Shown here piece after piece: positions 3,001 through 62,028 of a stretch of DNA of 64,000 nt. A program made the translations under genes and the position numbers. The notes under the pieces were generated by a model. The model saw only the letters and a list, made by a program, of their open reading frames with translations, searched no databases and was not told the origin of the DNA. Origin of the DNA: a virus. Its lineage: Duplodnaviria; Caudoviricetes. The stretch is taken from positions 320,001 to 384,000 of IMG/VR virus record IMGVR_UViG_3300037484_000435; one strand, given 5' to 3'. Positions within the stretch are counted from its first letter, which is position 1, and each line of letters opens with the position of its first letter.

Positions 3001-6000
3001 TCTTTATCAACCTTACCACGATAAAGTTCATCTACAGTCTTCAACTTCAAGTCATCTGCTAGTTTTTTGAACTCGTCTACAGGGAGAGGTTTATTAGCAA
3101 CCTTGGCATCAAACCAAGCTAACTGGTCTTTCTTTCCTCCCCATTCACCAAACAAATCTACTCGATGTCCTATATCTTTTGAGTATTTCTTAAGTTCAGG
3201 AGCCAGCCCTTCTTCCATCTGTTCAATAAAAGGTTTGTATAGTTTATTAGCAGTATCGGGGTCTAATACTTTATTGCGTGTAGCATAGCCTATCTCGGTA
3301 TTTCCCCAACGTAGAGGAACAGCACTCATTTTGATTTGATGACCATGACTCTTATACTGTGCCGATCCCTCAACGTCTTGTTCTAAGAATTTTGGGTCTT
3401 CAAAACCTGTTTTAATATGGGGGTAATCGGCTGGACTAAACCCACGAACAGCACGCCTGATGTTTTCAGGTGCTTTTTCTCCAAAAGCTTCTCCAGGTGT
3501 AAATGGGGGTCCACCAAAAGGCCCTCCAGGAGATGGCATAGTAGTGGATAATCCACCCCTAACGGACTTCTCTTCTATTGCTTTAAGAAACTCATTTCTA
3601 GATTTCTGGAATCTCATTGTATAAAAGTCTGGTGGTTCTATATCCAGTTCCTTCAGAATATTCTCCATTCTCTTCTTGAATACCATATTAATATAGCGAG
3701 TGTAGCCACGATTCTCACCATATATTCCTTCAGCATAAAGGGCTTCCAGAGGCTTTTCAGATTCGCTAGTTATCTTCTTAGCCTTCTGATCAAAATGAAA
3801 TATACTCTGCCAATCTTGTGATGTTAAATCAAAGGCACTATTAAAAATCTTTTCAACATCATTTCTTACTTTATGTGTGGGTTTAGATAGAATCTCTTCA
3901 AGGTCAACACCCCCACCAGCACTTGGCCTAAAAGGCCACATGGACTGCTCAGCGGAACGTGGTATTGCGGTATTCACACGAGATTCAACTTGGCTTAGCC
4001 GTAGATCTTCCCAGTCCTTTGGTAATCCTGCTCCTATGTGTTCAAGAATCTGCCCCTGGCGTTCCTTTATCACATTATTTATAAAATGTGTAACTCCTCG
4101 GCTTCCTCCGTAAACGCCCTCATTGCGCAAGGAAGAAATGACATCCTGATATGGTGTATCCTCGGAAGGAGACTTCATCCCACGAAGAACTGGGTGTGCT
4201 TTGTACACGCTCTGCCAATCTTCTTGGCTCAGCGTTTCGGTATTTTCCTTTACCGCTTCCTTCCAACTTTCTTTAAATAACGGGGAGAATGATGCAACAA
4301 GGTCCTGAGTTTTACCCCTTCCTACAAGTCCCTCAGATATTTGTGCAGGAAGGTTGACACCAGTTAAACCAAAAAAGCCTGAGCGGGAAGCTCTCCTAAG
4401 TGGGCCAATACCAGAACCATAACCAGCTTCCCCCGCAATATAAGAAGCTGAGGCCTCTTCGACTGCTTGTTTTCTAAACGCCGGAATTTTACGCAAGGCT
4501 ACGGTAACCTCTATATTGCTCGAATCTTCCATAGAACCCAAACCCGCCCCTTCTAAGGCTTTCTTAACCATAGGGCCGTGCTCTCTGCTATATACTAGTT
4601 TTTCAATTAAACTATCTACTTCTTTTGCATGGCTTGACTTGGGATCAGAAACCCTGTCAATCACAGATCTTAAGTAATCAGCTTTAACTCCTTCCCCCAT
4701 ATCTATGTACTTCAGAGCAGTTCCTCTTCTGATAATCTCGTGGGCTCGATCCATAGCCTGTGTTAACTTGTCGTTGGCCGTAGACCTCTCATCTGGGTTA
4801 CGAGCAAGCATACGTTCACGGAGTGCATCTTCAAAGGCAGTTTTTATTCCACTATCAATATAAACTTGGCCAGTTTCTTTGTCATAAGAAAATTTTCGTC
4901 CCGCTTTAGATTGTTCTCCATAAATTCCTTCGGTCTGCTTCGAAAAAGTTTGCACCTGATTAAGTAAACCCTCCACCTGATACACTTCTTTATTCATTAT
5001 TTTCATCATCTGGTCATGTGCCACAACAAACTCTTCATAAGCTTTCATTGCGGGACTTTCAAAGGTGTATTTCTTCTGTTCAGTGGCCCCACCAAAAGTC
5101 CCTATCATTTCTGGAATTTCTATCCCTTTACCCTTTTTATTTCTTAATACATAGTCAAGCACTTCAGCTTGGGATAACGCAGGACCCCCAGGAGTGTATT
5201 CATTTTCTATATCTGATCGTTTAGCATAGGACCCTACGGCCATCGCGGCCCCACCGGAAGTTTTCATCTTATACATAGGTTGCAAACCCCTATATAAAGT
5301 AGAAGTACTTATTCCAGGTTGTATAATTTCCTCACTAATATTCCTATAATCCCCCTTCCTCACTTTCTCGATACCTTCTCCCATAGCAGCAATCCTAAAA
5401 CCTATTTCTTCTTTAGATAATTTCTTACCTGATGCTTTTCGCATCTCGTCTATTACCAGCTGTGTAATATCATCTTTTCCTACTAAAGCTTGGAAATCAC
5501 CTTCGTTAAATTTGAACTTGGTTTTGAACCCTAAAGTTTGGAGTGTTTCATCCTCATAACCTGGCTTCCCTGCAACGAATCTAGCAAGACCAAGAGATCC
5601 TTTTTTAGATAAGGTGGCGTCCCCCGCCAAACCTGTTGCGTAAAGTTCCTTTACATTAGCAACGGACATACGCATCATTTGGTCAAAAACATTTTCAAAC
5701 ATAGCACGGAAAGATGTTTTCTGTATAATATCTTCTATTAATTGCTCCCGATCTTTGCCCTTTGTGGATATACCGTATTCTTTAGATTCGCTCTGTAATT
5801 GTTCTAAAGTGAGAGGACGTAAAAACTTTAGTCTGTATTTACGCATTGATTCTTCTTGTTGTCCAAAAAGAGCTTCCTCACCAGCGCCTTGCATACCACC
5901 TTTATATTCTCCCCAGCCACCGTGACCGGCATCAAGAGCCGATGTTAGCTGATCCAAATTACCAGTGAAAAAAGCTTGTTGAACTTTGGGGCTTAAATCA

Positions 6001-9000
6001 GAACCAGCGGAACCATGCTTACCACCAATAACTCTCTGGATAGTATCCCTCAAGAATTCCCCTAAAAGAAGATTGTAGTTCTCATGCAACTTGGGGGTCA
6101 ACCCCAACCCCTTCGGGTCTGCCCCTCGATACAATAAACCTATACGGTTAAAGGCTTCATATCCTTGTCCCATATCAACTTTATGCACGAAATGTTTAAG
6201 GGAGTCTTCCGCAATTGTTGAGGGGTCTGTTTCATGTATATCTAGAAGATTTTTCTTGGCGGCTTTAGTAATCTCATCAACGTAGTTCATGCTCTTCCAG
6301 CCGGGAGACGACGCCGACAACCTATACTTCAAACTAGCAGGTAATTCCTCTGGAGATAGTTCAGCGCCCTTAACTCCCAACGAGACCGCAGATTCAGGAA
6401 CATTGCTCTTTTGAATATTTTCGTGCATAAACCTACGAGTTGTACCATAATCTTTTAGTTGCATCTCATGGATACGTTTGAGTTCTTCGTTAGCTTTCTG
6501 AGTAGTAGCGGCATGAATAGAAATCATATCACCATCAAAATCTAGCGTCATACTGGCTTCATGGTAAAGCGGTAATAAATCTTTTGAAACTTTATCGATT
6601 TTATCAATATCGTCTTGTAACTTACCGACCTTAGAGGTGAATTTACCTCCGCTAGTTTCAAGTTCATTTTCAATCTCTTTGACTTTCTTTTCCCTTAGTT
6701 CTTCCAAAGCGTCCCGAGTTTTATTCATTGTACTGATAACTGGGTAATCCCCGATAGGTAAACCAGGAACAGCAACAGACCCAGACAAATCTTTCATCAT
6801 ATCATCCACCGTTAATTTTAGAGAACGGTAACTAAATTCATCTGTAGTAGGTTGTCTATTAATAAGAGCATAAACATCATCAACCTTACTTTGTAAATCA
6901 GGGGTCGCCATACCTGCTTTTTGTAACTCCACCAAATCTTTTCTACCAATACGTACTTCCCCTTTACCGATCCATTGTGAGGGGTGTTCTTTTTTGAATT
7001 CTCCCACATTCTTGAGAGATTCAGACATTTGACCTATTAATTCCTCGGAGCCAGGTATTTCTTCTTTGAACTCTTCCAAACGCCCAATACCAGACCTAAT
7101 AGCCTCACTAGGGTCATAAGGCCTATGCTGTGCCGTCAAGTATAAGGCTGGTATCTTCTTCTTCATAATGGTATTTGAAATTAACCCACCTCTACCGTAA
7201 ACTGTGCCGGACAATTCTTCATAGTAAGCCTGCAAGTTTCTCATTATTTCGCCATATTGTAAATCCAGAGCAGTTTTTGATGTGAGACCAACATTTTGAC
7301 CCCTAGCATCAAGTTTTGGTTCATATAATCTGAAATCCTTCACAATCTTACTCAATAACTCTGGGCTAACCAATTCCTTTACAGCATAATTTGGATTACG
7401 CCCCTCAGATATATCTTCGGACACTGTTTTCCCTATCATATTTGTATCTTGGGTATAGATTACTGAACCAGAAAGGAGGTCCCTCAAAAGACGTGCTCTA
7501 AAGTTTAAATTAGACACATTATCTTCGAGCTGGGAGAAGTATTTTGTATAAGCTTCACTTACTGTTATGCCCTTCTTAAAATCTTCTTCCAAGGATTTAG
7601 CGTGCTCTTCTGGCAAGCGAGAATATAAAGTTGGAAACCATGTTTTTTCTGGATTTTGAGGATCAGCGATCAAAGAAGACTTTGCGGAAAATTGTGGCAT
7701 CGGCATGTTCCCAACTAACCCTAGAGCCTGTTCCTCTAATTTTCCTAGAAGTTCTTTTTTAAATGGTATATCACGAACAGGATGAATTCTATTATAGAAA
7801 TCCCCTAACATAGTATCTACAAAAGTTTTTTGTATTTCTTCCACTTGTGGGGTCTTAGCTGGTTTTTGTAAAAGAGAGTGTTTCCTTACAGACTCGATTA
7901 ATTCAGATAGGTAACGGGCATCCGGAGAAGGTAAGATTTCTCCAGTTTCTGAAGTTACATATTGCCTTGCTTTAATTTCTGGAATTTCAATTAATTTTTT
8001 AATTGGCACCACCTGCTTTCCCTCTTTAATTCCAGCCGCTACCTCTTCCTCACGAGCCTTGCTTACTTCTTCGGAAGGTTCTGGCAAACGAAGCACCATA
8101 GATGGCCCATACTTGAAGGCGTCAAAAATGGTTCGAGATAAATCTGCTACTGTAGCTTTTCGTTTTAGTGGCGCTATATACTTGTTGGAGCCTTCATCTA
8201 CCAAGTCTTCTGGAGTAATAACTGTTTTAGACCTATCGCGTTCTAACTCTTGGCTTCGTAATTTAGAGAATGACCTGAAAGCATTTAGGTAAGCCCCAGC
8301 TTCTCTGGCATCAGGAAAGGCCCTCATTGTAAATTCATGCTCTAACGCCCCGCCTTTGGGAAATAATTTTTTGAGACCAAACCAACCATGGGGATCAACA
8401 GTCATTTTAGATTCACCAGACTCTAATTCCTCTTCTCCTTTGGATAACCAAGTTTTTGGCTCTTTCATTATCATGACATGCATAGCCCCAGCTATTGCTT
8501 TCTCTAATTTACCTTCCTTATCCAGAATAAACTCTTCCCCGTATTTTCCTTTAAGCCCTAAAATATCTTTATATAACTCGGCTAACTTACGGGCCTCAAC
8601 CCCAGAAGCTGTATTACCTACTGCCACTTTTGCTAATGGGTCCCTTTTAATTTGGTCAATTAAAGTCTCATCAGGAAGAGCAACAGATCGTAGGTTACCA
8701 ATAATATTATTCGCAATCATTTCTGCTAAATTTCCACCAATCATGCGAGATTTTTTTCCTATTCCAGAAGCAGATACTTGCAAATCTACAGGAACATCTC
8801 TGGTCAAATCTCCACCAACAACTTCCTGATATGCTTTACGTACTTTACCCATATCAGCAGAAATAGTCTTCACCTGATCCGTAGCAGTCTTCGCACCCTT
8901 TAACACACTCGTCGGAGCTAGTCCTAATCCCAGCACTTTCGATACAAATTCACGCCTCTCGTCTACACTCGGGGCATCCTCTCCTGTGAGCTTGCCTGTC

Positions 9001-12000
9001 CCGTATTCGATCGGTGTAATCTTCAAATCCTTTAAATGCTCAGAAGACATCATAATAAGATTTCTTGTACCTTTTATCATTTCTAAGGCTTTCTTTGCTT
9101 CAGCGGGATCCACATCCTTCCTAGCCTTAATCATTTCAGATAAAAGTTCTTCAAATGTTTTTGGGACCTCTCTCAGCATACCAATATCAGAAAACTCTAA
9201 TCTTGGGGCCATGCCTTTCTTAGCCTTTTCCACAAGAGAAGATTCAGCTTCAGGACCCATTCTTCTGGCCACTGTTACAGCGACCCCCTTCATAACCTGT
9301 CCCGTTGATATCTTTCGTGTCTCATGGCCAAGGTAAGCATTGAGAAGCTCTACAATGTTTTCTTCCACTGGGCCTTTGGGTGATTGAGACCACCGTTTTA
9401 CTATATCTTTTACGAATGTCTGGTCCGCAAGCTCTTTGGATTGTATGGGTGCTCCAAAAATATCGTGCCCCACTTCCTCTAGATACTTTATTATACTCCC
9501 CTTTAACGCCTCTGGGGTAGATTTAAGTGATGGCACAACCATCTTCTTAAATTTAAAGGTGGCTAATTCCTGTAACCTCTTACCTATTTGGTATAAATCC
9601 TCGTACCCTGCAGAGACATCCTTTAACACAGTTGTTACATTCAAACCTGTTCCATAAGGCCCCCATTCTCCGCCCTTAATAAAGCCATGAGCTTTACGAG
9701 AACGAATAGCATTAAACTCTGGACCAGCTAGAGAATCCCAAGCAGCCCCAGTAGGACGAGCCGGATTAATAGAATAGCCAAAGGCCTCAGTTTCTCTGGG
9801 ATCGTAAGAAGCGAATGGTTGTAAACGTTTACTACGAAACATAGACTCCATGAAATGATCACCAAAATCTCTCTTGCCCGCTGCCGACGCTTCATTAAGA
9901 CCCACAGTTGCTAACTTCTCAATAGTGGGGCCCAACCTCCGTTGAGAAGCTTCGGTTTGCCGTAGAAATTCTTTCTGGACTAACTCTTCCATATCTAGAT
10001 TTCGTGTAACAATAAAACGTCGTAATGCTTGCAAATCAACAGGTACTCCGTAAGAACTTGGTCCCGCGTCTATACCAGGAATTTTTGGTTGAATAGTAGT
10101 AACTTTGGCCCTACCATACACTTCATGTTTTTGCATCGCCTCATGCTCTTCCGGAACCTTCTCTTTAATTGGGTCAAACACTTTCTTAAACCTTTGTGGC
10201 AGTAGCTCTTGAAAATATGATTCATTTCCTAGACGGCCAGCAGACGAAAGACTATTCCTAAGTTTCTGCAGTTCATTACTGTCAGTCTTAGAGTAAGTTG
10301 CGGCACGGTTTAAAAGGCTATAAAAATCTACAGGTCGATATGTAGAAAACTGCTCCAATGTACGTTGCCATGCTCTATTTTGGTAATCGGACGCCCCAAA
10401 TTTTTTAAGTTCCTGCTCTTTAGTCTTTTGTAATTCTGATTCTAATTTCTCAGTTGGGATACGGGAAACTGCCTCACCGCTCTTTAGAGATTCTTTTCGC
10501 AAATATTCTAAAACAGGATCAGGTAATAATTCATACCTAGCTCCTTTACCTACTAGTGGCACCATCTTAGGCCTAAACTCTTTTTCTAATTTATCAGGAA
10601 GTTTAACTTCTCCACTAATAACGCTTTCTTTTAGAAGTCGCTCCCTAGTAGATTGTATAGCCTCCCGAAGAGCACTCTCGTATTGTTCATTGAACTGTTG
10701 TCTTAATTCGTCGATTGCGGTTAATGACTTGGAAGCTCTAGGTCCTCTAGTGTCCTTTATAAATTTTGAAACAAGATCAAAAGAATTTTTTACACGTTGA
10801 ACTACTTCTTCAGAAGCTCCTTCCTGACCGATACCCACACCATGTTCCTCGTGAGGACGTGAGCGCACCCAGTAATCTTTGGTTAATCTAGATAGATCTC
10901 GAATCTGCCTAGGTATGTCTTTTGGTTCTTTTCGCAGCGTCTTTACTTGTTCCATTAACGGAGCTATATACTTATCTTCCAACACATTAGGGGCAGGACG
11001 GGTTTCCAAGTACTTACCCAAGGTAAGGTATTCTCCTCGCTCTGGATCCCTAATAATTAAAGCCCCTCTTGAGCTCTTATGCACTGACGGTATTTGTATA
11101 GTCTGTCTAGTAAGGCCCTCAATGCTTTTGTTTACTAATTCAATACGTTTAGTAGCTTCTTCTGCCCCTAACTTCGCCTTCAGTTGTTGATCAACCATAC
11201 TTAGTAAGTCTTTCTGGATCTCCCGTAATCTATCAATAGAGTAGGACATAATTGTTTCAGCCTTACGAGAAATTCCTTTGGATTCAATATACTGGTCTAT
11301 AGATTTTTGAATGTCCGGACCAACATCGGTTTTGACGGAAGAAGACAGTCCTTGAGCAGACATCAGGGATTGCAGTTGTTTAGCTAAAGCTTTCACATCA
11401 GTCAAACCATACTGTGCCCCACCAAACTCATTAAATGTAACACGTGGATCCCCCACATAACGACCACCTATCGGGGCACCAATTCCACGCCGTTTGCTCA
11501 TTGACTCAACATCGTGAAATTCTGGTCCAGCGGGCTCAAAAAATTGTGGTTTAGCAAAAGTAAACACCATACTTCTTTGGAATTGCTCAAAAGACCTGCG
11601 TGTAGGAATAGCCTCAACCCCAAGCTCTTTGTCAAGGTCCTCTTTAGCCTTTGTAATAGCATCCCGCATCTCAACAACTTGCTTAGCTAATTTATTACTG
11701 TGTAATTCTTTCTCTACTGCTGAAGTAATTTGAGCCAGATTACCTGTAGTAATCTCCTCAAGCTTTGATTTTAAAGCGTCAACCTGTTTTAGGGCTTCTT
11801 GGTGTGACTCATAGCCAACTTTAGACAACGCTGTATGTATTTCCTGATAAACATCGTCCATCTGGTGTCTAATACGAAGAGCCTCTTTACCCAGCTCTTC
11901 CTTAGGCAGAGCCTGTAATTTCTGTAATTTCAGTTCAAGTTCTCGTGTAAAAATGTTGGGTGCCGCGATTTCTTGCAAAGTTCTTTCAGGACGAACATTG

Positions 12001-12530
12001 ATCTTTTCACCAGAAAAAGTTTCAATTACGTTAGGGGCCTTTAGGCCTTTCACAAAATCCATATAATCTAAGAACATATCCCGCTGCTGGTCAAGGCTAC
12101 GCCGCATTCTATCCGTATGTTGTTGGCTGGAATGAAACTGGCGATCGAATTCAGTTTGCATTTCCTGCCGAGCCTGAGAATACTCTTGTTTCTTTGTGAA
12201 TTCCTTGGAAAAAGGCTTTACTGGGTCAAATTCTTTTTTGGCAGTTTGGGGAGTGATCGGCCCTGCGGCCCGAAGATCCTTATCTCGAAGCATTGCAATC
12301 TGCTCTTCAATAGCATTTAATTCTGTTTGTATGCGGGATCTGTATTCCGATAAAATGGAAGTATCGTGGGATTGGGCGTAAGATGATTTGGCATCCTTAA
12401 TATCTCTAATATTAAGAGTTTTTAAATCTTCACGTAACTTATCTACAAAACCTTTTATATTCTCATTAATAGAGTCAGATAGTTGTGCGTCAATGTTTAT
12501 TTTTATATTAAAAGTATAATCTTCAGCCAC
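1..12530 (-). CDS. Giant tape-measure-position polyprotein (>=4176 aa, 3' end outside window) carrying RNAP, ligase, phosphoesterase, peptidase and RNase H domains
   Basis: GTG start at 12530 (MAEDYTFNIKINIDAQLSDS...), with GAGGT about 12 nt upstream. I translated the frame by hand over most of its length and found no stop down to position 3. It lies directly downstream of the tail tube and chaperone genes. It is absent from the ORF track because no stop lies in the window. Confidence 0.9.
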   Translation of the reverse strand, partial: MAEDYTFNIKINIDAQLSDSINENIKGFVDKLREDLKTLNIRDIKDAKSSYAQSHDTSILSEYRSRIQTELNAIEEQIAMLRDKDLRAAGPITPQTAKKEFDPVKPFSKEFTKKQEYSQARQEMQTEFDRQFHSSQQHTDRMRRSLDQQRDMFLDYMDFVKGLKAPNVIETFSGEKINVRPERTLQEIAAPNIFTRELELKLQKLQALPKEELGKEALRIRHQMDDVYQEIHTALSKVGYESHQEALKQVDALKSKLEEITTGNLAQITSAVEKELHSNKLAKQVVEMRDAITKAKEDLDKELGVEAIPTRRSFEQFQRSMVFTFAKPQFFEPAGPEFHDVESMSKRRGIGAPIGGRYVGDPRVTFNEFGGAQYGLTDVKALAKQLQSLMSAQGLSSSVKTDVGPDIQKSIDQYIESKGISRKAETIMSYSIDRLREIQKDLLSMVDQQLKAKLGAEEATKRIELVNKSIEGLTRQTIQIPSVHKSSRGALIIRDPERGEYLTLGKYLETRPAPNVLEDKYIAPLMEQVKTLRKEPKDIPRQIRDLSRLTKDYWVRSRPHEEHGVGIGQEGASEEVVQRVKNSFDLVSKFIKDTRGPRASKSLTAIDELRQQFNEQYESALREAIQSTRERLLKESVISGEVKLPDKLEKEFRPKMVPLVGKGARYELLPDPVLEYLRKESLKSGEAVSRIPTEKLESELQKTKEQELKKFGASDYQNRAWQRTLEQFSTYRPVDFYSLLNRAATYSKTDSNELQKLRNSLSSAGRLGNESYFQELLPQRFKKVFDPIKEKVPEEHEAMQKHEVYGRAKVTTIQPKIPGIDAGPSSYGVPVDLQALRRFIVTRNLDMEELVQKEFLRQTEASQRRLGPTIEKLATVGLNEASAAGKRDFGDHFMESMFRSKRLQPFASYDPRETEAFGYSINPARPTGAAWDSLAGPEFNAIRSRKAHGFIKGGEWGPYGTGLNVTTVLKDVSAGYEDLYQIGKRLQELATFKFKKMVVPSLKSTPEALKGSIIKYLEEVGHDIFGAPIQSKELADQTFVKDIVKRWSQSPKGPVEENIVELLNAYLGHETRKISTGQVMKGVAVTVARRMGPEAESSLVEKAKKGMAPRLEFSDIGMLREVPKTFEELLSEMIKARKDVDPAEAKKALEMIKGTRNLIMMSSEHLKDLKITPIEYGTGKLTGEDAPSVDERREFVSKVLGLGLAPTSVLKGAKTATDQVKTISADMGKVRKAYQEVVGGDLTRDVPVDLQVSASGIGKKSRMIGGNLAEMIANNIIGNLRSVALPDETLIDQIKRDPLAKVAVGNTASGVEARKLAELYKDILGLKGKYGEEFILDKEGKLEKAIAGAMHVMIMKEPKTWLSKGEEELESGESKMTVDPHGWFGLKKLFPKGGALEHEFTMRAFPDAREAGAYLNAFRSFSKLRSQELERDRSKTVITPEDLVDEGSNKYIAPLKRKATVADLSRTIFDAFKYGPSMVLRLPEPSEEVSKAREEEVAAGIKEGKQVVPIKKLIEIPEIKARQYVTSETGEILPSPDARYLSELIESVRKHSLLQKPAKTPQVEEIQKTFVDTMLGDFYNRIHPVRDIPFKKELLGKLEEQALGLVGNMPMPQFSAKSSLIADPQNPEKTWFPTLYSRLPEEHAKSLEEDFKKGITVSEAYTKYFSQLEDNVSNLNFRARLLRDLLSGSVIYTQDTNMIGKTVSEDISEGRNPNYAVKELVSPELLSKIVKDFRLYEPKLDARGQNVGLTSKTALDLQYGEIMRNLQAYYEELSGTVYGRGGLISNTIMKKKIPALYLTAQHRPYDPSEAIRSGIGRLEEFKEEIPGSEELIGQMSESLKNVGEFKKEHPSQWIGKGEVRIGRKDLVELQKAGMATPDLQSKVDDVYALINRQPTTDEFSYRSLKLTVDDMMKDLSGSVAVPGLPIGDYPVISTMNKTRDALEELREKKVKEIENELETSGGKFTSKVGKLQDDIDKIDKVSKDLLPLYHEASMTLDFDGDMISIHAATTQKANEELKRIHEMQLKDYGTTRRFMHENIQKSNVPESAVSLGVKGAELSPEELPASLKYRLSASSPGWKSMNYVDEITKAAKKNLLDIHETDPSTIAEDSLKHFVHKVDMGQGYEAFNRIGLLYRGADPKGLGLTPKLHENYNLLLGEFLRDTIQRVIGGKHGSAGSDLSPKVQQAFFTGNLDQLTSALDAGHGGWGEYKGGMQGAGEEALFGQQEESMRKYRLKFLRPLTLEQLQSESKEYGISTKGKDREQLIEDIIQKTSFRAMFENVFDQMMRMSVANVKELYATGLAGDATLSKKGSLGLARFVAGKPGYEDETLQTLGFKTKFKFNEGDFQALVGKDDITQLVIDEMRKASGKKLSKEEIGFRIAAMGEGIEKVRKGDYRNISEEIIQPGISTSTLYRGLQPMYKMKTSGGAAMAVGSYAKRSDIENEYTPGGPALSQAEVLDYVLRNKKGKGIEIPEMIGTFGGATEQKKYTFESPAMKAYEEFVVAHDQMMKIMNKEVYQVEGLLNQVQTFSKQTEGIYGEQSKAGRKFSYDKETGQVYIDSGIKTAFEDALRERMLARNPDERSTANDKLTQAMDRAHEIIRRGTALKYIDMGEGVKADYLRSVIDRVSDPKSSHAKEVDSLIEKLVYSREHGPMVKKALEGAGLGSMEDSSNIEVTVALRKIPAFRKQAVEEASASYIAGEAGYGSGIGPLRRASRSGFFGLTGVNLPAQISEGLVGRGKTQDLVASFSPLFKESWKEAVKENTETLSQEDWQSVYKAHPVLRGMKSPSEDTPYQDVISSLRNEGVYGGSRGVTHFINNVIKERQGQILEHIGAGLPKDWEDLRLSQVESRVNTAIPRSAEQSMWPFRPSAGGGVDLEEILSKPTHKVRNDVEKIFNSAFDLTSQDWQSIFHFDQKAKKITSESEKPLEALYAEGIYGENRGYTRYINMVFKKRMENILKELDIEPPDFYTMRFQKSRNEFLKAIEEKSVRGGLSTTMPSPGGPFGGPPFTPGEAFGEKAPENIRRAVRGFSPADYPHIKTGFEDPKFLEQDVEGSAQYKSHGHQIKMSAVPLRWGNTEIGYATRNKVLDPDTANKLYKPFIEQMEEGLAPELKKYSKDIGHRVDLFGEWGGKKDQLAWFDAKVANKPLPVDEFKKLADDLKLKTVDELYRGKVDKDLAQKVYTQQDQFKGIEEGVVAKALGEIDPKTGFPRMLKLKTKDYLVNEENRYPWRTQESAEQRIEERFARVLEGKRSYSPAYQTEEEIDQDSYKNFSPSLVQKQEGLYPEDWPVVETSKKRMEEYLKGLDDKFYQPPERAGEFKKGTKFLLQAPSVEPIPSFAKDAVVATQEELRKGIFGKGMPELPYDPVLVLNTRRQAPKYPEAVPISKEAGFMFPGEAKEGDVGRFVVHKHDAFRAGPHHDMRIEVGGQLQSWAVPEFMPTEKGKPRLAIGPTAHHAIDYYQKGEYDIPKGFYGAGHMATYDTGKATLESVKEGYVTVRLEGVKGLVDGTYNILNYEPKGEDTKKGQWLVSKVRPMEERDPERAKQFYGFSPNVEIDDTLGAGEGRYQDGNIRLFSPTNRAEMRAFMNVMQHEKGHAVIDYSAPTIAQDIMSGKEFPGIDTKKIQNYYMQKYGDRGEEEPANALEEALAGGLRTDEDQEVLDELAKVQELVAEKAGREAIGTSPQEELSFMRKNLQNYSPAQQPYTLYTDAGSRGNPGPSGAGAVLLNPKGQTIAEVNKYLGEMTSMAAEYQGLIMGLQEALKNSAQNIKVRSDSEVMVGQMRNEFKVKNEQIKELKAQADVLAAQFDNVSFSYVPREENKPADRLANIAMNRGLTPGTQAYAPLRQEPTGFLESAGRSALIGAAVAPIVGSMAYGLGLQHIPLATGAGAAVGALSGLTSAGVSRTPQLNPTNEERPIWKMLKGALSGAAVSSIAGAGWYGASSLLEGSNLLPQSFLDSRSSVIKAAPLWGAVTGGIGGLFTPSEKTYRSNTPAEGEENLDEPRLNAPADEKKPLWRRMAGGLGKAALIGGGAALAATYALPASMTMLGLGGLGAGTMAGATAYTGYPMIAPIVEALVGAIKTIGSSEIVKSGTALLGEGWSATKDLVGKISEYIPDSVTNLAKRGVNAAGSAAWSGMKDFEGYARPTFRKWDESAFPYATDVTKKVWGTAMDTVP
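3..1000 (-). other. Gly/Ala-rich hydrophobic segments (putative membrane-inserting tape-measure region)
   Basis: In-frame translation includes SALIGAAVAPIVGSMAYGLG, LATGAGAAVGALSG, MLKGALSGAAVSSIAGAGWYG and AGGLGKAALIGGGAALAATYALPASMTMLGLGGLGAGTMAGA. Confidence 0.65.
1029..1421 (-). other. RNase HI domain (Rv2228c/archaeal-type) within giant ORF
   Basis: YTLYTDAGSRGNPGPSGAG (D at 1401-1403), AAEYQGLIMGL, VRSDSE, VPREENKPADRLAN. All four acidic catalytic residues are present. The usual TNN is TSM here. Confidence 0.88.
1575..1870 (-). other. Zincin-like metallopeptidase domain within giant ORF
   Basis: GEGRYQDGNIRLF...VMQHEKGHAVI (HExxH at 1743-1757), with a downstream EEALA (1584-1598) as the likely third zinc ligand. 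Confidence 0.72.
1935..2411 (-). other. LigD-type DNA/RNA 3'-phosphoesterase (PE) domain within giant ORF
   Basis: RFVVHKHDAFRAGPHHDMRIEVGGQLQSWAVPE...RLAI..TAHHAIDY...IPKGFYGAGHMATYDTG...QWLVSK follows the LigD PE consensus FVVQKH..RRLHYDFRLE.DGVLKSWAVPK..RLAV..EDH.LDY..IP.G.YGAG...WD.G..WLL.K. Confidence 0.88.
2870..3380 (-). other. ATP-dependent ligase adenylation domain, RNA ligase (Rnl2-like), within giant ORF
   Basis: Motif I QYKSHG (K at 3351-3353), Ia YATRNKVL, III LFGEWGG, IIIa WFDAKV, TVDELYRG, IV EEGVVAK, V MLKLKTKDY, in canonical order. No OB-fold is recognisable afterwards. Confidence 0.78.
5241..7319 (-). other. RNA polymerase beta'-like (catalytic DPBB) region within giant ORF
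   Basis: YGRGGLISNTIMKKKI (cf. KGKQGRFRQNLLGKRV), GEVRIG, YALINRQPT (6846-6860; cf. VLLNRAPT) and MTLDFDGDMISIHAATTQKANEEL (DFDGD at 6528-6542; cf. [24 protein letters not shown]). The end boundary is approximate. Confidence 0.9.
5721..5813 (-). other. SAP/Rho-N-like helix-extension-helix motif
   Basis: LTLEQLQSESKEYGISTKGKDREQLIEDIIQ matches the L..ELK...K..GI...G.K.ELI..I pattern. Confidence 0.5.
8283..9659 (-). other. RNA polymerase beta-like (second DPBB) region within giant ORF
   Basis: GLNVTTVLKDVSAGYEDLYQIGKRL (YED 9597-9605; cf. E. coli [26 protein letters not shown]), KISTGQVMKGV (K-x7-K at 9288-9314; cf. KMAGRHGNKGV), VPVDLQVSASGIGKKSRMIGGNLAE (8742-8792; cf. [22 protein letters not shown]). 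Confidence 0.85.
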
Positions 12531-12552: not shown

Positions 12553-13647
12553 TTATTCTTTGGTGAATTTTTTACTCTTTGAAATACCCTTAGACTTTTT
12601 AAAAGTAACGCCGTCTTGTCCTGGGTCATCTTTCAAAGAGATATCGGCAACATTCCCAGCTTTAGGATTTGCCCGATCATACTGCCTATCCAAGTATTCT
12701 GGATGCGACTGCATAATTAATCTGGTGCTCATCTTCTCCGCCGTAGAGCTACCATATTTTTTCTCGGCCCGCCTTTCTGACCTGTCTTTCGATCTTTCCT
12801 TATGCAAGTCTTCCATATACTCGTCTAGTGCTCCATCATCTTGGATGACCCAGTCATCTGGCTGGTCCTCTGGAAGCATTTCATAAATAGATTGATAATA
12901 CCCTGTCCACCATAATAAGTTCTTTTGGTCAGGTGTCAATTCTATAGACGATTTTGGAAATAAATGAAGATTACCTTTCTGTGCGACTAAATAGTCCAAC
13001 CGCCACAAATTACTTCGGGCGATATACCTGATTTCTTCTGTCGTATGTCCAACTAAATATCTTAGAAACTCAGACAGAAGTTTGTTTTTGAGCTCAACTT
13101 TCCTTTCTACCTCCTTGCAATAGGTTAGGTAATTGTCCCATAATAACTCATCCGTTTCGGGGTCAAAACAGCAAGCCCATAACATGTAGTCATATTTGGC
13201 TTGTCGTGCTCTCCGTTCAGCAGTATTTGACATCATTATCTCGCGTTTCTTCTCGGCTTGAAATAATTCTTCCTCTAACTTATTTATACTCTCCTGAATG
13301 TAAGGCTTATAAGTAACATCAATATCTACGTCTGACATTTTTCTTTTATTCATGTCAAGTAATTTATGAATAGTTTCAACTTTTTTATCATCCTTTTCAG
13401 TCCAAATTCCGCGCTCACGCATTAGTTTGTCCATTTCAGATTCATTCATAATGTTGTCTTTTTTGGCACGGAACATAACACGGCGTTCCTCTAAATTCGC
13501 AAGGAGGGTGGTGTGACGGGAAGGATAACGGAAAATAACAAAAATAGGGAAATCCTCAGAGAAAAGAGAAACCTCAACAAGTCTTTGAGAAAAACATATC
13601 TGTTCTATTGTTAGTTGTAACTCGTCAAGAGTCCAATCAATAGACAT
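12553..13647 (-). CDS. Tail assembly chaperone, GT-like (long paralogue)
   Basis: Immediately upstream of the tape-measure ORF. It shares SNTAERRARQAKYDYMLWACCFDPETDELLWDNY with the 15859-16566 protein. Probable ATG at 13647 (MSIDWTLDEL). Confidence 0.6.
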   Translation of the reverse strand: MSIDWTLDELQLTIEQICFSQRLVEVSLFSEDFPIFVIFRYPSRHTTLLANLEERRVMFRAKKDNIMNESEMDKLMRERGIWTEKDDKKVETIHKLLDMNKRKMSDVDIDVTYKPYIQESINKLEEELFQAEKKREIMMSNTAERRARQAKYDYMLWACCFDPETDELLWDNYLTYCKEVERKVELKNKLLSEFLRYLVGHTTEEIRYIARSNLWRLDYLVAQKGNLHLFPKSSIELTPDQKNLLWWTGYYQSIYEMLPEDQPDDWVIQDDGALDEYMEDLHKERSKDRSERRAEKKYGSSTAEKMSTRLIMQSHPEYLDRQYDRANPKAGNVADISLKDDPGQDGVTFKKSKGISKSKKFTKE

Positions 13648-14542
13648 GCAAATCACCATACTTTATAATTCTATAACTACTCAATAGATCCCATTTTCTT
13701 GATAACCCAAACTGAACACTATTTCGACAGTCAATTAAAAATTTCTCGGCACGATTACCCCCTAGAGTATAATAACTATAAGTCCCAAAGTCTTTTACCT
13801 GACTAATCCGAGGAGCACCATAAGTGGAATCACAAAAATTCTTAATCCAAGCCAACAGATATCTGGTTCCACAAAAGCCTGTTACTAACGTGGGTATATT
13901 GTGTTTTTTATTCCAACCAAGGGAGACCCACCCATCACCATCAAGAAGTCCTTTAAGATAGGGCAGTATCAAATCATTATCTAATAACTTAGGGGGACGA
14001 AGTGTATAGGTCTTTTGCGGAGTAATAGAAAAATTGTTATTTAAATCTATATACCACCCCTTAATCCCAGAAATACGTATTTCAGCAAAATAGGAATTTT
14101 TACTAAAACCCCTACTTTTTCGAGAATGTATTTCCCCAGAAAAATGAGTCTCTGCTTTAAAAGATCCCAAAACAGAAGCATCCTTCTCAGCCAAACCTAT
14201 AGTTAATTGGTATCTATTTGCAGATAAGTTACCATCGGCAGCAATAAAGCCTGCCCAGTAAGAGTTGTGTGTATTCGGTTCGGAAAAGTAATCCAAATCA
14301 ACGGTTGTTCTGACTCGTCCTAAAGACAAGGTGTGGGAGGTATCACCTTTTATACCCAACCTCAGAAGTCTATTACTAACCGCACCTTTGCTCTTACCAA
14401 GTTGTTGTGAAATTTCTTTACGATTAACCTTTTCATAAAGAGATAATAGTAGCCTATCTTCTTCGGGAGTCCAATGTTTATACCCCTTAGTATTCTGAGG
14501 ATTGCGTGATTGGAGTTCATCTAAGGACCATTCTACTGCCAT
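13637..14542 (-). CDS. Free-standing LAGLIDADG homing endonuclease with one Myb-like W repeat
   Basis: SYWAGFIAADG and YLKGLLDGDG motifs; WTPEEDRLL repeat; RBS GGAG. Confidence 0.85.
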   Translation of the reverse strand: MAVEWSLDELQSRNPQNTKGYKHWTPEEDRLLLSLYEKVNRKEISQQLGKSKGAVSNRLLRLGIKGDTSHTLSLGRVRTTVDLDYFSEPNTHNSYWAGFIAADGNLSANRYQLTIGLAEKDASVLGSFKAETHFSGEIHSRKSRGFSKNSYFAEIRISGIKGWYIDLNNNFSITPQKTYTLRPPKLLDNDLILPYLKGLLDGDGWVSLGWNKKHNIPTLVTGFCGTRYLLAWIKNFCDSTYGAPRISQVKDFGTYSYYTLGGNRAEKFLIDCRNSVQFGLSRKWDLLSSYRIIKYGDLHVY

Positions 14543-14555
14543 CTATTTCTCCAAT

Positions 14556-14591
14556 AAAAAAGGACCTACTAACAGACGTTAGTAAGTCCTT
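14556..14591 (-). terminator. Intrinsic terminator-like hairpin
   Basis: Minus strand AAGGACTTACTAAC-GTCT-GTTAGTAGGTCCTT followed by a T run. Confidence 0.65.
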
Positions 14592-14605: not shown

Positions 14606-15748
14606 TTAAGCAGGGATACCTACTTGTCTTTCATATTCTTTTATCTTGCCCCATTTACGAGCAAGACGTGTTGGGGTTGGGACTTTTTGTAACTCTTTGA
14701 GGATACGGTAAGCCCTCTTTCCACCTACTTTATAAGTAAAAGCCCTTGAACCTTTTATAGGATGGACTTTAGCATTTATCCCATACATAGAAGGACAAAT
14801 TTTGTCAAATATTTCCTTCGCCCACTCAAGTAAATTTTGAGTCCCTGTGATGTTAATAATAGGATAAATATGGCCCCACTTATCGGGCTTACTAGGAAGA
14901 ATAATAGAACCGTCTCCATCAATAAGACCCACCATAAAGGCCAAACTATTTTCATAGTTAAGCTTGGTCGGTGGTTCTAATACGAGCGTTTTATTCTGTA
15001 CAATGTTAAAGTTGTTCTTTAGGTCCTGCACCATCTGTTGTGCAGAGGAAAACTCTAGAAAACTCATTGGTGTCTTACCTTTTACACTAGTTGTTAACCT
15101 AGTACGAATGTCACCAGTAAACCTAGACAAACTTGCAAAAGAAGTAAGAACCAGACTATCCTTCAAATGTAGAGAAATACGCACAGTGGCACGTTCTTCA
15201 TCAACAGACCCATCTGCCGCAATAAAGCCCGCCCAGTAAGAATTACAAACATTTGGTTCCTTAAAAAATTCTCTATTGTAATCATAACGTCTACGGTATG
15301 AAGACGGGTCTTTCTTCAAACCCAACCCACGGGCATGGCTTGTAATTGTCCGATAGTCTTTGTCTGGTATCAAATCTCTAAGCTCTGATACGGGTTTTTT
15401 TAAATAATTACTAATTAATATCTGCTCTTCACCCTCAGACCACCGAGTACGTTTTTCTAAACCAAGGGTTAAGATTTTTTTCTTAATCGCTGTTTTGGAA
15501 CGAGCAGAACAGAGACCTAGAGAGACTATCTCGTCCACTGTAAGATATTTATAATTTTCTATTAGGGAAGCAATATCTTCCTGAGACCATTCGGACTTAA
15601 TGTAGCCCCGCAACCCCAGTTGTTCTGCTTTTTTGTGAATTGATGCTTTCTTACGTAACGGTAGAAGTTTTTCCATATCTATTGCTGGTATCCTTGAATA
15701 GTTAATCATCATAATTTCAATTTCTTGTGGTGTCCATTTATTTGCCAT
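14606..15748 (-). CDS. LAGLIDADG homing endonuclease with three Myb-like repeats
   Basis: WTPQEI, WSQEDI and WSEGEE repeats; SYWAGFIAADG and FMVGLIDGDG. Confidence 0.85.
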   Translation of the reverse strand: MANKWTPQEIEIMMINYSRIPAIDMEKLLPLRKKASIHKKAEQLGLRGYIKSEWSQEDIASLIENYKYLTVDEIVSLGLCSARSKTAIKKKILTLGLEKRTRWSEGEEQILISNYLKKPVSELRDLIPDKDYRTITSHARGLGLKKDPSSYRRRYDYNREFFKEPNVCNSYWAGFIAADGSVDEERATVRISLHLKDSLVLTSFASLSRFTGDIRTRLTTSVKGKTPMSFLEFSSAQQMVQDLKNNFNIVQNKTLVLEPPTKLNYENSLAFMVGLIDGDGSIILPSKPDKWGHIYPIINITGTQNLLEWAKEIFDKICPSMYGINAKVHPIKGSRAFTYKVGGKRAYRILKELQKVPTPTRLARKWGKIKEYERQVGIPA

Positions 15749-15858
15749 TATTTCTCCTAGAAAGAATAGTTAAGGGATGCTCATTGAATGAAACACCCCT
15801 TTGCTGTATTAAGACACCTATTTAGAAGTTAGGTTCCCAGAAATAAAAATATGTTTAA

Positions 15859-16566
15859 TTATTTCTTTTTAGAATTTTTTACTTCTTTTTCTTCAACTTT
15901 TGCTTTAGGTTTTGCTTCTTCTATTTCCTTTGTACTTTCGGCTTCTTCTATCTCTTTGCGAGCAAGTGCCTCAGGAGTAGTCTCAAGAAAATTTTCTGCC
16001 AGACCCTGAAGTGCCAACATTACGGAGTAGCGTGAGCGCATTGCCAATGTGGGGTTGGAAGTAGTTTTATATTCGTCATAAGACTCCCAAACCTTGTCAC
16101 CATTTGAGTCTTTGACCATTGCAGAGGTAAGGTATTCTATTCTAGCATCCTCTGCCAATTGTTCTACGCTGTTAGACATAGGGCTAGAAGCTCTTTGGTT
16201 CCACCTAAAGAGTCTGTTTCTCACGTCTTCTACCTTCTCTGCACACACTTTCTTTTCATCAAGAGTCTTAGCACTATTAAGTTCCGCAATACCTTCGTCT
16301 AACTCCTTAATAAGAGCCACACGTTTTTCCTCGTACTTCTTACCAATGATATCCCTTTCTTCCAGAATATCCTGCATCTGAGCCATGGTAGTAACACCAG
16401 CCAAAAGTGCCTCATTGTAAGTCTTGCTATAGAACCAATCTGCCTGACGTACTTCGTCAATGCCAGCATTGTCAATAAAATACTTCTCTCCGTCGTGAAT
16501 AAACGTTCTTTTGTCCTCAAAGATATCCTGAAGAGTTTGTTCATCCTTTTTAGTTTTATCAGCCAT
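15859..16566 (-). CDS. Tail assembly chaperone, G-like (short paralogue)
   Basis: Acidic helical protein downstream of the tail tube gene. SNSVEQLAEDARIEYLTSAMVKDSNGDKVWESY aligns with the 12553 protein. Confidence 0.6.
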   Translation of the reverse strand: MADKTKKDEQTLQDIFEDKRTFIHDGEKYFIDNAGIDEVRQADWFYSKTYNEALLAGVTTMAQMQDILEERDIIGKKYEEKRVALIKELDEGIAELNSAKTLDEKKVCAEKVEDVRNRLFRWNQRASSPMSNSVEQLAEDARIEYLTSAMVKDSNGDKVWESYDEYKTTSNPTLAMRSRYSVMLALQGLAENFLETTPEALARKEIEEAESTKEIEEAKPKAKVEEKEVKNSKKK

Positions 16567-16582
16567 TTCCTATTCCTCCATC

Positions 16583-16858
16583 TTATCGCTTTACCGTGAT
16601 AATATCTTCAGCGGTAGCTTCATATTCAACGATATAAGATTTCTCCAGCTCCTTTTCCAGTTGCCGGATGGCGTCATTAGACGCCCTCAATATTTTAGAA
16701 CGCAGTGGCTTAAAAGCCTCTGGGTTACCTGCTAATGCAATAACTACACTTTCTACCTGATCCAGAATATGCGAATATGCTTTCTTCTGAATCTCTTGCA
16801 TTTTCCTTACAAATTTATCTCTGCTTTTTTTTTGTCGGTCTGATTCTTCTTGGGCCAT
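16583..16858 (-). CDS. Hypothetical protein (tail module)
   Basis: 91-aa ORF with RBS, in operon context. Confidence 0.6.
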   Translation of the reverse strand: MAQEESDRQKKSRDKFVRKMQEIQKKAYSHILDQVESVVIALAGNPEAFKPLRSKILRASNDAIRQLEKELEKSYIVEYEATAEDIITVKR

Positions 16859-16887: not shown

Positions 16888-17820
16888 TTAAATCTCTGTC
16901 TCCTCATCACTTTCTGAATTACCTTTGCCAAATATCTTTTTGAGCCAACGTCGAATTCTAAGAAATCTAAACCACTTTCTCTTTTCCATTTTTTCTTCTA
17001 CAATTACCTCAGCATCAATAGGCTCTATCTCCTTAACAACCACAACCAAAGGTGGCACCTCAGTAGTTTCTCTTTCTTCAAACAAGTACGTGTAGTTACG
17101 CATTTGTTCTTTGTAGAGCTCTGTTGCATGTTGGTATAAACGTAAGTCTAGTTGATTGCGGTCCTCAATTAACTTAATTACTCCTTTTGGTAATTCTTCC
17201 TTAGTTAATCTGTCAGAAACATTAACCATAGGGAGGTTAACTTCCGGCCACCCTAATTTATGTGAACAAATTTTTATAAAACTCGGTAACTCCTCATACA
17301 AACTGAAAAAGGTAAAGGCATCTGATAGACGGGCTTTAGCATAAGCAAACATCAATTTTTTACTACCCGCCCGTAAAAAAGAGGAAAGAACTTGCGTTTG
17401 AAAATCAGACATGCCCATCTCATACACCATATCCTCACTACGCAAAATTTCCTCTAGTGAAAACTGTAGAGCTTTCTGGTGTAATGCATGATCCTCTCGG
17501 CCTCTCAAAAAATAATACTGAGAAATGACACGGTCAATGGGCTCACGAACCACTACATATTGATTTATAGTAATTTTTAAACGGCTATAAAAAGGGTCAC
17601 AAAGCCGGTAATGCCCCAATAAAGCCTTATAATTTCCAATTGTCCCCTGCTCAATAAGAGAAAGCACTTCTCTAGCTGTAGCTTTCTTGTAAGCGTCCCC
17701 ATATATACTCCCGAGTAACTCAGAGATGGAATTCCCCGCGGTTTTCGGCATGTGAAAAAATAATTGTAAATTGTTAGAGTTAAACTGCTTAGACACAAGA
17801 TTAGTAAAATTGGTTGGCAT
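16888..17820 (-). CDS. Sulfotransferase family 2 protein
   Basis: 5'-PSB-like FFHMPKTAGNS and 3'-PB-like VVREPIDRVISQYYF. Start at MPTNF (17820) with an AGGAG RBS. Confidence 0.8.
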   Translation of the reverse strand: MPTNFTNLVSKQFNSNNLQLFFHMPKTAGNSISELLGSIYGDAYKKATAREVLSLIEQGTIGNYKALLGHYRLCDPFYSRLKITINQYVVVREPIDRVISQYYFLRGREDHALHQKALQFSLEEILRSEDMVYEMGMSDFQTQVLSSFLRAGSKKLMFAYAKARLSDAFTFFSLYEELPSFIKICSHKLGWPEVNLPMVNVSDRLTKEELPKGVIKLIEDRNQLDLRLYQHATELYKEQMRNYTYLFEERETTEVPPLVVVVKEIEPIDAEVIVEEKMEKRKWFRFLRIRRWLKKIFGKGNSESDEETEI

Positions 17821-17923
17821 CTGCCCTCTCCTTGTATGATCCCCATCTACCCTTCCTTTAAAAGGTGGGATGATACTGGAGACCAACATAGATCCCCAGT
17901 ATCAGTTAAATTACAACCTTTAA

Positions 17924-19609
17924 TTAGAACTGGTTGGCTGCACTATTACGCTCAAGGCAGGCGACGTCATCTATATGAACATCACCCTTAACAACAAACA
18001 ATTTGTTAGTTGCCCGGAAATTCATTTCCTGAGTTGCTGATCCACCACCGCCTCGACCACCACCAACTGCGTTATTGTAGTTCTCGGCTTGGATTTTCAA
18101 CCCCTGTACGACCACAGTTTTCAAAGCACGCTCTCGTGGAGACGTACCACAATCTGTGACAATATCATAGGTTCCCACACCATCCCAGTCATAATACTCG
18201 TCCCCGTCCATGCTTGAAAGCATTGCTAGACGATTAAGACCGTTCTTTTGACCAGCTTCCTCATCAGTCTGCTGATATACTTTAACAACCATCAAGAGGT
18301 TCTGTTTACTCATAAGGTGATTAAGAGCGATATCAGTTCCACTTCCACCAGCCTCGTAATCTGCAATGTCTAGACCAGCAGCAATTGCCCATCTATCCAA
18401 ATCAGACGCCATAGAGGTTGTGGCTACAGTAATCTCAACAGGAAAATTCATTGGGCGAGCAAAAGGCCTTATATGACCGAGCTCGTTCAACGGGGTCCTA
18501 GTTGGAGTCGCTGTAATTGTTACAGTCTGCATCCTCAGCGTCATGTCCCACGTAGTGGTCAGATCAGGGTCAACAATGTAGGCCTCAATCTGTCCTTGTC
18601 GAACAGCGCCCAAGTCTTCTGGAAATTGGAGCGCAGGATTTTCTGGACCAGCAGTAGTAGTTGCTGGTTCAAAATACTTCGCAAATATACGATCAGCATC
18701 ACTACTACCAACACTTGAAGAAGCATATGCACTCGCGGCATAAATTACAATAAACTTATACCCACCATCAATGCTCGGCCACAAAGTAGCTGCGTTAGTA
18801 GGTAGAGTGATAGTATGACTAGTAGTGTCATAATAAAATTCATTAGCTGCCGCAGCAGTTTCATTCATTTTATAGACCGTGCCCTCACGCTCGCTTGGAG
18901 CTCTTACAGTGACACCAACGTCTCCTGTAGCAGTCCACGCCAAAAAGGCTCTTTTACACGAAGAAAGAACAGGTATGACAGCCGCATCTGCAAGGCCAAG
19001 GTTTAGTACCTGACTGTTAGACGGGGCAGCGATGTCCCACTCTTCTTGGGATACAAACTTTGCGTTGTTGACCAACCACATTTTGTTGTCAGTTTCTGCC
19101 GCATAGTTTTCCGTAGCATTGGCACCAACATTATAAGTTAGTGTAACACTATTAACATAAACCTTATCCATAAACAGAGTCATCTGGATATCATCATCTT
19201 GGGTTCCAAGAGACGCTTCGTTCTGCACAGGTGCCCAAATTTTAACACCGTTGCACAGAGTGAAATCTGCCAAAGATACCCCGTGGTAATATCGAACTCC
19301 AGATCCGGTACAAGCAGCATTAGTTCTGAGGTATGCACCACTTACTGTGGGGTCCCCTTGCATCTGCAGGGGATTCATACCAGCCAGAACAGCCATGGAA
19401 TTAACAGCGCCCCATTCGTTGGTGTCTAAAGCGACCGCAACAGCAGGAACGTCGTCAACCACGTCTACCCTATCGAGGGATCCGAGTTCAAACACGTCTT
19501 CGGCAGTGAACGTAGTATTACTTCCCAAAGTCTGTACTCTATAAAGCAAATGCCCATTTGCACGAACTGATTGGGAGGCATACATAATTCTGGTTCTTTT
19601 TTGTGCCAT
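17924..19609 (-). CDS. Major tail tube protein (probable)
   Basis: 561-aa beta-rich protein upstream of the chaperones and tape measure, with a strong AGGAGG RBS. It has tube-like segments (QTLGSNTTFTAEDVFELG; QTVTITATPTRTPLNELG). Confidence 0.65.
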   Translation of the reverse strand: MAQKRTRIMYASQSVRANGHLLYRVQTLGSNTTFTAEDVFELGSLDRVDVVDDVPAVAVALDTNEWGAVNSMAVLAGMNPLQMQGDPTVSGAYLRTNAACTGSGVRYYHGVSLADFTLCNGVKIWAPVQNEASLGTQDDDIQMTLFMDKVYVNSVTLTYNVGANATENYAAETDNKMWLVNNAKFVSQEEWDIAAPSNSQVLNLGLADAAVIPVLSSCKRAFLAWTATGDVGVTVRAPSEREGTVYKMNETAAAANEFYYDTTSHTITLPTNAATLWPSIDGGYKFIVIYAASAYASSSVGSSDADRIFAKYFEPATTTAGPENPALQFPEDLGAVRQGQIEAYIVDPDLTTTWDMTLRMQTVTITATPTRTPLNELGHIRPFARPMNFPVEITVATTSMASDLDRWAIAAGLDIADYEAGGSGTDIALNHLMSKQNLLMVVKVYQQTDEEAGQKNGLNRLAMLSSMDGDEYYDWDGVGTYDIVTDCGTSPRERALKTVVVQGLKIQAENYNNAVGGGRGGGGSATQEMNFRATNKLFVVKGDVHIDDVACLERNSAANQF

Positions 19610-61993: not shown

Positions 61994-62028
61994 ATAAAAA
62001 TAAATTCTCCAACAATTTAATGTACTTG

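Follow-up and report, generated by a model that had tools for sequence, protein, structure and literature searches.

Homing endonucleases found in or near essential genes are described in textbooks as occupying introns, inteins or intergenic space, and occasionally as splitting a gene. Here we analyzed a locus in a 64,000-nt stretch of phage DNA (hereafter the window; positions 320001-384000 of the 545,322-bp IMG/VR record IMGVR_UViG_3300037484_000435), in which a homing endonuclease gene, HEG1, is followed by a gene of 364 aa, here called the target gene, and opens with a diverged copy of the target gene's first 11 codons. Phage reviews and surveys list only intron, intein, intergenic and gene-splitting arrangements (PMC2988022; PMC10448857), and a limited literature search retrieved no published account in which a phage endonuclease is joined to the duplicated 5′ end of its target.

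Among the closest described systems are the mORF 'gene hybrids' of fungal mitochondria, known from atp6 in Allomyces macrogynus and from atp6, atp9, cox2 and nad3 in Glomus (PMC3630166), with related duplications in Tremella (PMC7315562). These elements insert at the 3′ ends of genes, bring in a foreign, diverged C-terminus and strand the native one (PMC3630166). As in the mORFs, the endonuclease studied here lies within a coding gene without an intron or intein, and the displaced gene end occurs twice, as a working and a stranded copy; the mORF copies also show low DNA identity (64-81%), and some mORFs have an endonuclease frame in phase with the gene that hosts them. Unlike in the mORFs, where the 3′ (C-terminal) end is involved and the stranded copy lies downstream, it is the 5′ end that is duplicated here, the host is a phage and not an organelle, and the upstream copy gives the endonuclease its promoter-side signals, start codon and leader. 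The HEG1 open reading frame (ORF) lies in a coding gene between two copies of the displaced end, both of which score within the profile range of the gene family; because the duplicated end is the N-terminal and not the C-terminal one, HEG1 represents a mirror-image variant and not a strict member of the mORF type.

Three further systems share some of these features. In phage T4, the MobA/gene 60 element carries a diverged replacement, HomR, with 67-81% DNA identity (bioRxiv 10.1101/2022.08.31.505936; PMC2988022). This too is a phage endonuclease element in a coding region, and its downstream ORF likewise overlaps out of frame, by 8-32 nt for MobA and by 11 nt here. However, MobA is an HNH endonuclease, divides the topoisomerase gene into parts for two polypeptides and relies on a translational bypass of 50 nt, whereas the target gene is a single full-length ORF with no bypass, the upstream fragment (11-17 codons) being fused to the endonuclease. 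'Core creep', as summarized in PMC10448965 from work of 2011, is the in-frame capture of host translation signals by intron-encoded endonucleases. In both cases the endonuclease gains host translation signals by being read in frame from host coding sequence, but a self-splicing intron restores the host mRNA in core creep, whereas the gene here contains no intron and is restored by the duplication of its 5′ end. For the T4 seg and mob genes, stop/start overlaps of 11-24 nt have been discussed as suggesting translational coupling or re-initiation (PMC2988022). These T-even genes ('intronless homing', PMC2988022) are free-standing between conserved genes and share the overlapping stop and start with HEG1, but they are intergenic or target-splitting, belong to the GIY-YIG or HNH types and carry no fused copy of a neighbour's N-terminus. 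A second endonuclease gene next to HEG1, HEG2, is of this free-standing kind.

The HEG1 frame is headed by what is probably the native front of the target gene, running from an intrinsic terminator with its T-run through GGAG to the ATG and the 11 codons that it opens. The target gene itself is complete, being kept whole by the second copy, which starts 8 nt before the HEG1 stop codon. Every gene discussed in this study is on the minus strand, and the locus is made up as follows.

14553-14591, minus strand: intrinsic terminator directly upstream of the HEG1 ribosome-binding site, with a 14-bp stem and a 4-nt loop (14591-14560), then the T-run TTTTTTATT
14543-14552, minus strand: GGAGAAATAG, the Shine-Dalgarno (SD) sequence and spacer of HEG1, an initiation region of the target-gene type
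13637-14542, minus strand: HEG1, 301 aa
14510-14542, minus strand: copy 1 of the first 11 target codons (MAVEWSLDELQ), the leader of the HEG1 frame
14492-14509, minus strand: codons 12-17 (SRNPQN), a junction or linker of uncertain origin from the captured leader to the endonuclease proper
13637-14491, minus strand: endonuclease proper, from codon 18 (ACT), which aligns to Met1 of the ortholog P0082
14360-14473, minus strand: Myb-like three-helix domain matched by Pfam, HEG1 residues 24-61
13658-14272, minus strand: double LAGLIDADG core, HEG1 residues 91-295, with the motifs WAGFIAADG and LKGLLDGDG
13637-13647, minus strand: 11-nt overlap of the two genes, ATGTCTATTGA, with the target start codon 8 nt upstream of the HEG1 stop codon
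13615-13647, minus strand: copy 2 of the 11 codons (MSIDWTLDELQ), with which the working target gene opens
12553-13647, minus strand: target gene, 364 aa, downstream of HEG1

HEG1 starts with ATG GCA GTA GAA TGG TCC TTA GAT GAA CTC CAA (MAVEWSLDELQ) and the target gene with ATG TCT ATT GAT TGG ACT CTT GAC GAG TTA CAA (MSIDWTLDELQ). The two copies agree in 7 of 11 residues, the other four being conservative replacements, and in 20 of 33 nt. The HEG1 stop codon TGA (13639-13637) falls within codons 3-4 of the target gene, the ATG of which is at 13647-13645. These starts, codons, residue identities and the stop/start overlap had been reported in a first-pass annotation of the window, and we obtained the same on re-reading the sequence.

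The HEG1 leader is a genuine copy of the target N-terminus, with a resemblance far beyond chance. The target family (79 homologs) has the N-terminal consensus MAI[DE]WSLEELQ, in which W5 and Q11 are nearly invariant and which the HEG1 leader matches more closely than does the target start of the window itself. A W-anchored profile of nine positions, built from 42 other members of the family with the window's sequences excluded, gave 30.0 bits for the target gene and 27.3 bits for the HEG1 leader, against a family range of 19.9-32.4 bits. The next best of the 12,028 W-anchored 9-mers in the six frames of the genome reached 13.7 bits, and Myb repeat starts did not exceed 12 bits. HEG1 and the target gene also formed the top N-terminal match among the 530 adjacent same-strand gene pairs of the 545-kb genome, with a BLOSUM score of 47 compared with 28 at the 99.9th percentile of random pairs.

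Since the genome carries about 31 endonuclease paralogs, many of them starting MxxxW[ST]xxE, the main rival to be tested was that MAVEWSLDELQ is what remains of a degenerate Myb-like repeat and resembles the target gene by chance. Such starts are indeed suggestive: MANKWTPQEIE opens HEG2, and KWSLDEINLL occurs in one paralog. Yet among 169 homologous endonucleases (979 W-anchored 9-mers, 151 of them of the Myb type W[ST]xxE), only HEG1 and its ortholog P0131 reached the family range, and the best other site scored 16.1 bits. The residues that carry the score (A2, [IV]3, L7, L10 and Q11) are features of the target family and not of Myb repeats, the leader stretch is entirely lacking in P0082, and the leader stands behind a terminator and ribosome-binding site of the target type. 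Taking a Myb/SANT-like repeat to be a three-helix unit of about 45-50 aa that carries W[ST]xxE..L...Y and closes with an LG motif, we rejected such an origin for HEG1 residues 1-23: the stretch before the true repeat spans no more than 19 aa and has no LxxxY helix, the hydrophobic helix positions are missing from residues 5-23, Pfam matches Myb only at residues 23-61, and the structure model is of low confidence over residues 1-20 (pLDDT 44-46). The view in the first-pass annotation that the leader is too short to be a true Myb repeat is borne out, and we regard the chance reading as very improbable.

The region before HEG1 was compared with uninterrupted alleles. The layout there is terminator, T-run and SD sequence (GGAG), ending in CCTTTTTTATTGGAGAAATAG ATG, and the terminator has a predicted RNA fold of -23.4 kcal/mol (z = -4.8). 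Scans for related loci retrieved only seven (L001-L007), all distant, with a target gene 45-62% identical to that of the window; all seven are without HEG1 and HEG2 and have a single copy of the N-terminus. Their order is the 235-aa gene, a spacer of about 70 nt with a hairpin and ribosome-binding site, and the target ATG. A clear T-run is present in the spacers of L002, L004 and L006 (in L002, ...CCTTTTTTATTTGGGGTATGTT ATG), and L001, L003 and L007 have the hairpin and SD sequence with no clear T-run. In the window, this hairpin/T-run/SD/ATG layout precedes HEG1 and not the target gene. The comparison with endonuclease-free alleles that had been proposed for this locus supports the claim that the element took over the ribosome-binding site and start of the target gene.

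The endonuclease depends on this borrowed start. HEG1 has lost its own start codon, having ACT where P0082 has ATG: P0082 (285 aa, 64% identical) begins MKGFKHWT, which aligns to HEG1 residues 18-25 (TKGYKHWT). This places the native N-terminus at about residue 18 and makes residues 1-17 an added leader, although the P0082 start may be a gene-calling choice. None of the 31 paralogs in the genome aligned over HEG1 residues 1-16. A stop codon lies directly upstream of HEG1 codon 1, and no in-frame ATG, GTG or TTG was found between codon 1 and codon 62, a start at which would drop the Myb-like domain; with no other start codon before codon 62, full-length HEG1 can be translated only from the captured start. 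Codons 12-17 showed no convincing similarity to the target family at the protein or DNA level, and the junction between leader and endonuclease is somewhere between codon 11 and codon 17. The earlier placement of the insertion about 11 codons into the gene therefore stands as far as the first codons are concerned, but not for codon 11 as the exact point.

Sequence and model together predict that HEG1 is an intact LAGLIDADG homing endonuclease of the monomeric, double-motif type, carrying a single Myb-like DNA-binding domain at its N-terminus. Both catalytic Asp motifs are intact (WAGFIAADG at residues 95-103 and LKGLLDGDG at residues 196-204), and across 40 homologs D103, D201, G202 and G204 are invariant and D203 nearly so. 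The protein matched PHROG 4645 'endonuclease' (E = 1e-23) and, by phmmer, PDB entry 2dch (E = 1.4e-5). In an AlphaFold model based on 40 homologs, residues 1-20 are unstructured, residues 26-61 form the three-helix Myb-like domain, which is likewise modelled with confidence, and the LAGLIDADG core (residues 91-295) has a pLDDT above 90; Foldseek matched the core with a probability of 1.00 to I-Tsp061I (2dch), I-AniI, I-OnuI and I-SmaMI, in keeping with an alpha-beta-beta-alpha-beta-beta-alpha fold that occurs twice. The linker between the two domains (14273-14359, minus strand; residues 62-90), where the model is partly of low confidence (66-76), is identical to that of P0131 in 29 of 29 positions and to that of P0082 in 22 of 29, the proteins being 64-75% identical overall.

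The fusion is conserved in a relative. P0131, a protein of 301 aa in the 90%-identity cluster of P0081, is encoded on a 647,399-bp contig that also holds P0002 (80% identical to the target protein) and P0135 (81% identical to HEG2). It starts MAIEWSLDEIQLHNLQNTGGHRHW (MAIEWSLDEIQ), ends ...GGMNVY and aligns to HEG1 without indels at 75% identity overall, with 9 of the 11 leader residues conserved. The identity is distributed as follows.

Residues 1-11, leader: 82%
Residues 12-23, linker: 50%
Residues 24-61, Myb-like domain: 82%
Residues 62-90, second linker: 100%
Residues 91-301, LAGLIDADG core: 72%

Judged by these identities, the leader evolves no faster than the folded domains. As the fusion is common to the window and P0131, the arrangement predates the split of the two megaphage lineages and is old, not recent. 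If the NVY and stop codons of P0131 are spelled AAT GTC TAT TGA, the same letters would read ATG TCT ATT GA and give the MSIE with which P0002 begins; this spelling would fit an identical overlap in the 647-kb relative. These two fused copies were the only ones found in 5.8 billion protein clusters, P0081 being called from HEG1 residue 62 only. Searches of viral and genome contigs yielded no HEG1 ortholog and only a distant relative of 27% identity, and megablast and tblastn against the phage collection gave no matches.

The two copies have themselves diverged widely. Over 27 W-anchored nt, copy 1 and copy 2 share 16 positions, whereas copy 1 shares 22 of 27 with the endonuclease-free L003 and copy 2 shares 23 of 27 with L002; the copies thus resemble each other less than each resembles a different distant relative (22-23/27 nt). 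A search for a DNA repeat between the HEG1 flanks remained at noise level, with a best 24-nt window of 15 against a null mean of 14.5. Leaving out the ATG, 17 of 30 nt are identical, compared with 19.8±1.6 expected under independent codon choice (P=0.08). The copies are fully diverged at synonymous sites, and long separate evolution or an origin from two alleles would give as much. As the codon divergence does not significantly exceed expectation, the word 'recoded', used for the restored 5′ end in the first-pass annotation, is accurate as a description and is not evidence of selection.

Taken together, HEG1 probably lies in the 5′ end of the target gene, whose start region it has captured, with copy 2 restoring the gene without an intron or intein. 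Ribosomes that finish HEG1 would re-initiate at the target ATG (translational coupling), possibly helped by a weak SD-like GGTGA at 13653-13657, within the last HEG1 codons; folding of the HEG1/target junction revealed no significant RNA structure (z = -0.8). The absence of detectable DNA similarity between the copies would prevent recombinational loss of the insert, and the divergence of the copies would leave the restored gene uncut should this stretch contain the recognition site. The element would spread, or would once have spread, when the enzyme cuts uninterrupted alleles within or close to this region at co-infection and repair copies the element in. Other free-standing phage endonucleases spread in this manner, by cutting at co-infection and repair copying. 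Several points weigh against this interpretation. The SD sequence before the target gene is weak, and we infer the coupling only; the codon differences beyond saturation are not significant and offer no evidence of selected immunity; the natural MxxxW[ST]xxE starts of many HEG1 paralogs inflate the raw resemblance between leader and target; the native copy is not assignable from 11 codons; and both the adjacency of P0131 and P0002 and the state of the P0082 locus are likewise inferred.

The polarity may be the opposite, the endonuclease having arrived already fused to the leader and initiation region of a previous host phage, so that copy 1 is foreign and copy 2 native; the element would then have inserted right at the resident gene's start codon, with nothing 'supplied' to the target. 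Copy 2 does carry the start form MSI[DE]W seen in P0002 and P0006 (MSIEW), the two relatives closest to the target, copy 1 resembles other clades (MAIEW, MAVSW), and the copies differ as much as alleles of distant lineages; moreover, free-standing phage endonucleases usually reside in intergenic DNA (PMC2988022). However, eleven codons are too few for reliable phylogenetic assignment, and no separate native ribosome-binding region is left before the target gene. The last four HEG1 codons hold the first 11 nt of copy 2, which therefore travel with the endonuclease, and HEG1 orthologs keep the same C-terminal end (...[HN]VY). We consider the opposite polarity unlikely. We think it rather unlikely that the locus is instead a frozen accident or domesticated remnant, in which imprecise repair duplicated the 5′ end around an endonuclease that is no longer homing and the frame persists for downstream translation or its Myb-like protein has been co-opted as a regulator. 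Inheritance is apparently vertical (HEG1 orthologs are 75% identical, compared with 80% for the target), fused copies are as rare as described above, and the truncated call of P0081 hints at decay in one lineage. Against this, the 301-aa frame is intact and free of indels in two genomes, both catalytic motifs are kept, the core is modelled with confidence, and the roughly 31 paralogs in the genome suggest an active family.

An extension of the captured-start reading, which we regard as doubtful, is that the leader persists for the work it does for the element and not as a leftover. Copy 1 and the upstream DNA would serve as a left homology arm or as an uncleavable autoregulatory half-site, and the HEG1 frame would be the only ribosome route to the target gene. 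A precedent for such autoregulation is I-TevI, which binds and limits its own expression. If this were true, any deletion of the parasite by the phage would silence a virion-assembly gene, amounting to an 'addictive' integration into host gene expression.

The locus lies among the following genes.

17924-19609, minus strand: major capsid protein
16888-17889, minus strand: sulfotransferase-like gene
16583-16858, minus strand: 91-aa gene
15859-16566, minus strand: 235-aa gene
14606-15748, minus strand: HEG2, 380 aa, with three Myb-like repeats, between the 235-aa gene and the terminator
3-12530, minus strand: giant open frame, a putative tape-measure gene

No Pfam or PHROG family matched the target gene. 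Its position between the 235-aa gene and the giant frame, conserved by synteny in all seven related loci, may be that of a tail chaperone. The 235-aa gene (15859-16566) and the 364-aa gene (12553-13647) show 26% identity over about 110 residues (E = 3e-5, single comparison), a weak similarity that would be compatible with paralogs in the tail-chaperone position.

HEG2 is 34% identical to HEG1 and belongs to the same family, but is an ordinary free-standing endonuclease. A captured leader was ruled out for it: its start scored -1.6 bits with the target profile, and its orthologs start with their own native Myb repeat (MAxKW...). Several HEG2-like genes occur on contigs of 3.3-3.9 kb together with target homologs, probably adjacent to them, which marks the region upstream of the target gene as a recurrent endonuclease site. 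Across the 545-kb genome, the pattern GGAGAAATA.?ATGGC has just two occurrences, where HEG1 and HEG2 start, with GGAGAAATA(G)ATGGCA at 14537-14552 and 15743-15757 on the minus strand, respectively; this common motif may stem from a second duplication of the target initiation region or may be coincidental. A second, weaker hairpin without a proper T-run (15772-15801, minus strand) follows the 235-aa gene ahead of HEG2. This hairpin, the HEG1 terminator and the hairpins of several relatives (for example L002, L004 and L006) all start with AAGG and end with CCTT.

The genome as a whole carries an unusually heavy load of Myb-LAGLIDADG endonuclease genes (about 31 paralogs), eight of which are in the window (13637-14542, 14606-15748, 24316-25134, 28359-29525, 42062-43102, 43748-44620, 46378-47307 and 61178-62071). 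None of the other 31 paralogs showed N-terminal likeness to its downstream neighbour or flanking DNA repeats above noise. Outside the window, on the minus strand at genome positions 195950-197073, a hydrophobic ORF of 106 aa is followed by a 268-aa gene, and the exact 18-nt sequence ATGAATTTAGATTGTTTT (MNLDCF) occurs at or near the starts of both. This pair resembles a further case of a 5′ gene end duplicated on either side of an insert, here of about 320 nt, and stands two genes upstream of an endonuclease paralog.

The available natural controls, namely seven uninterrupted alleles, an ortholog with its own start and a fused ortholog, make cleavage specificity, immunity through divergence and translational coupling directly testable at this locus. 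Cassettes of this kind can also lead gene callers and phylogenies astray through the chimeric gene ends and fused leaders that they produce. Beside introns or inteins, intergenic space and gene splitting, the locus provides a statistically solid case, in a phage, of a fourth way for a homing endonuclease to reside in a gene, in which the start of the gene is borrowed and a differently spelled duplicate restores it.

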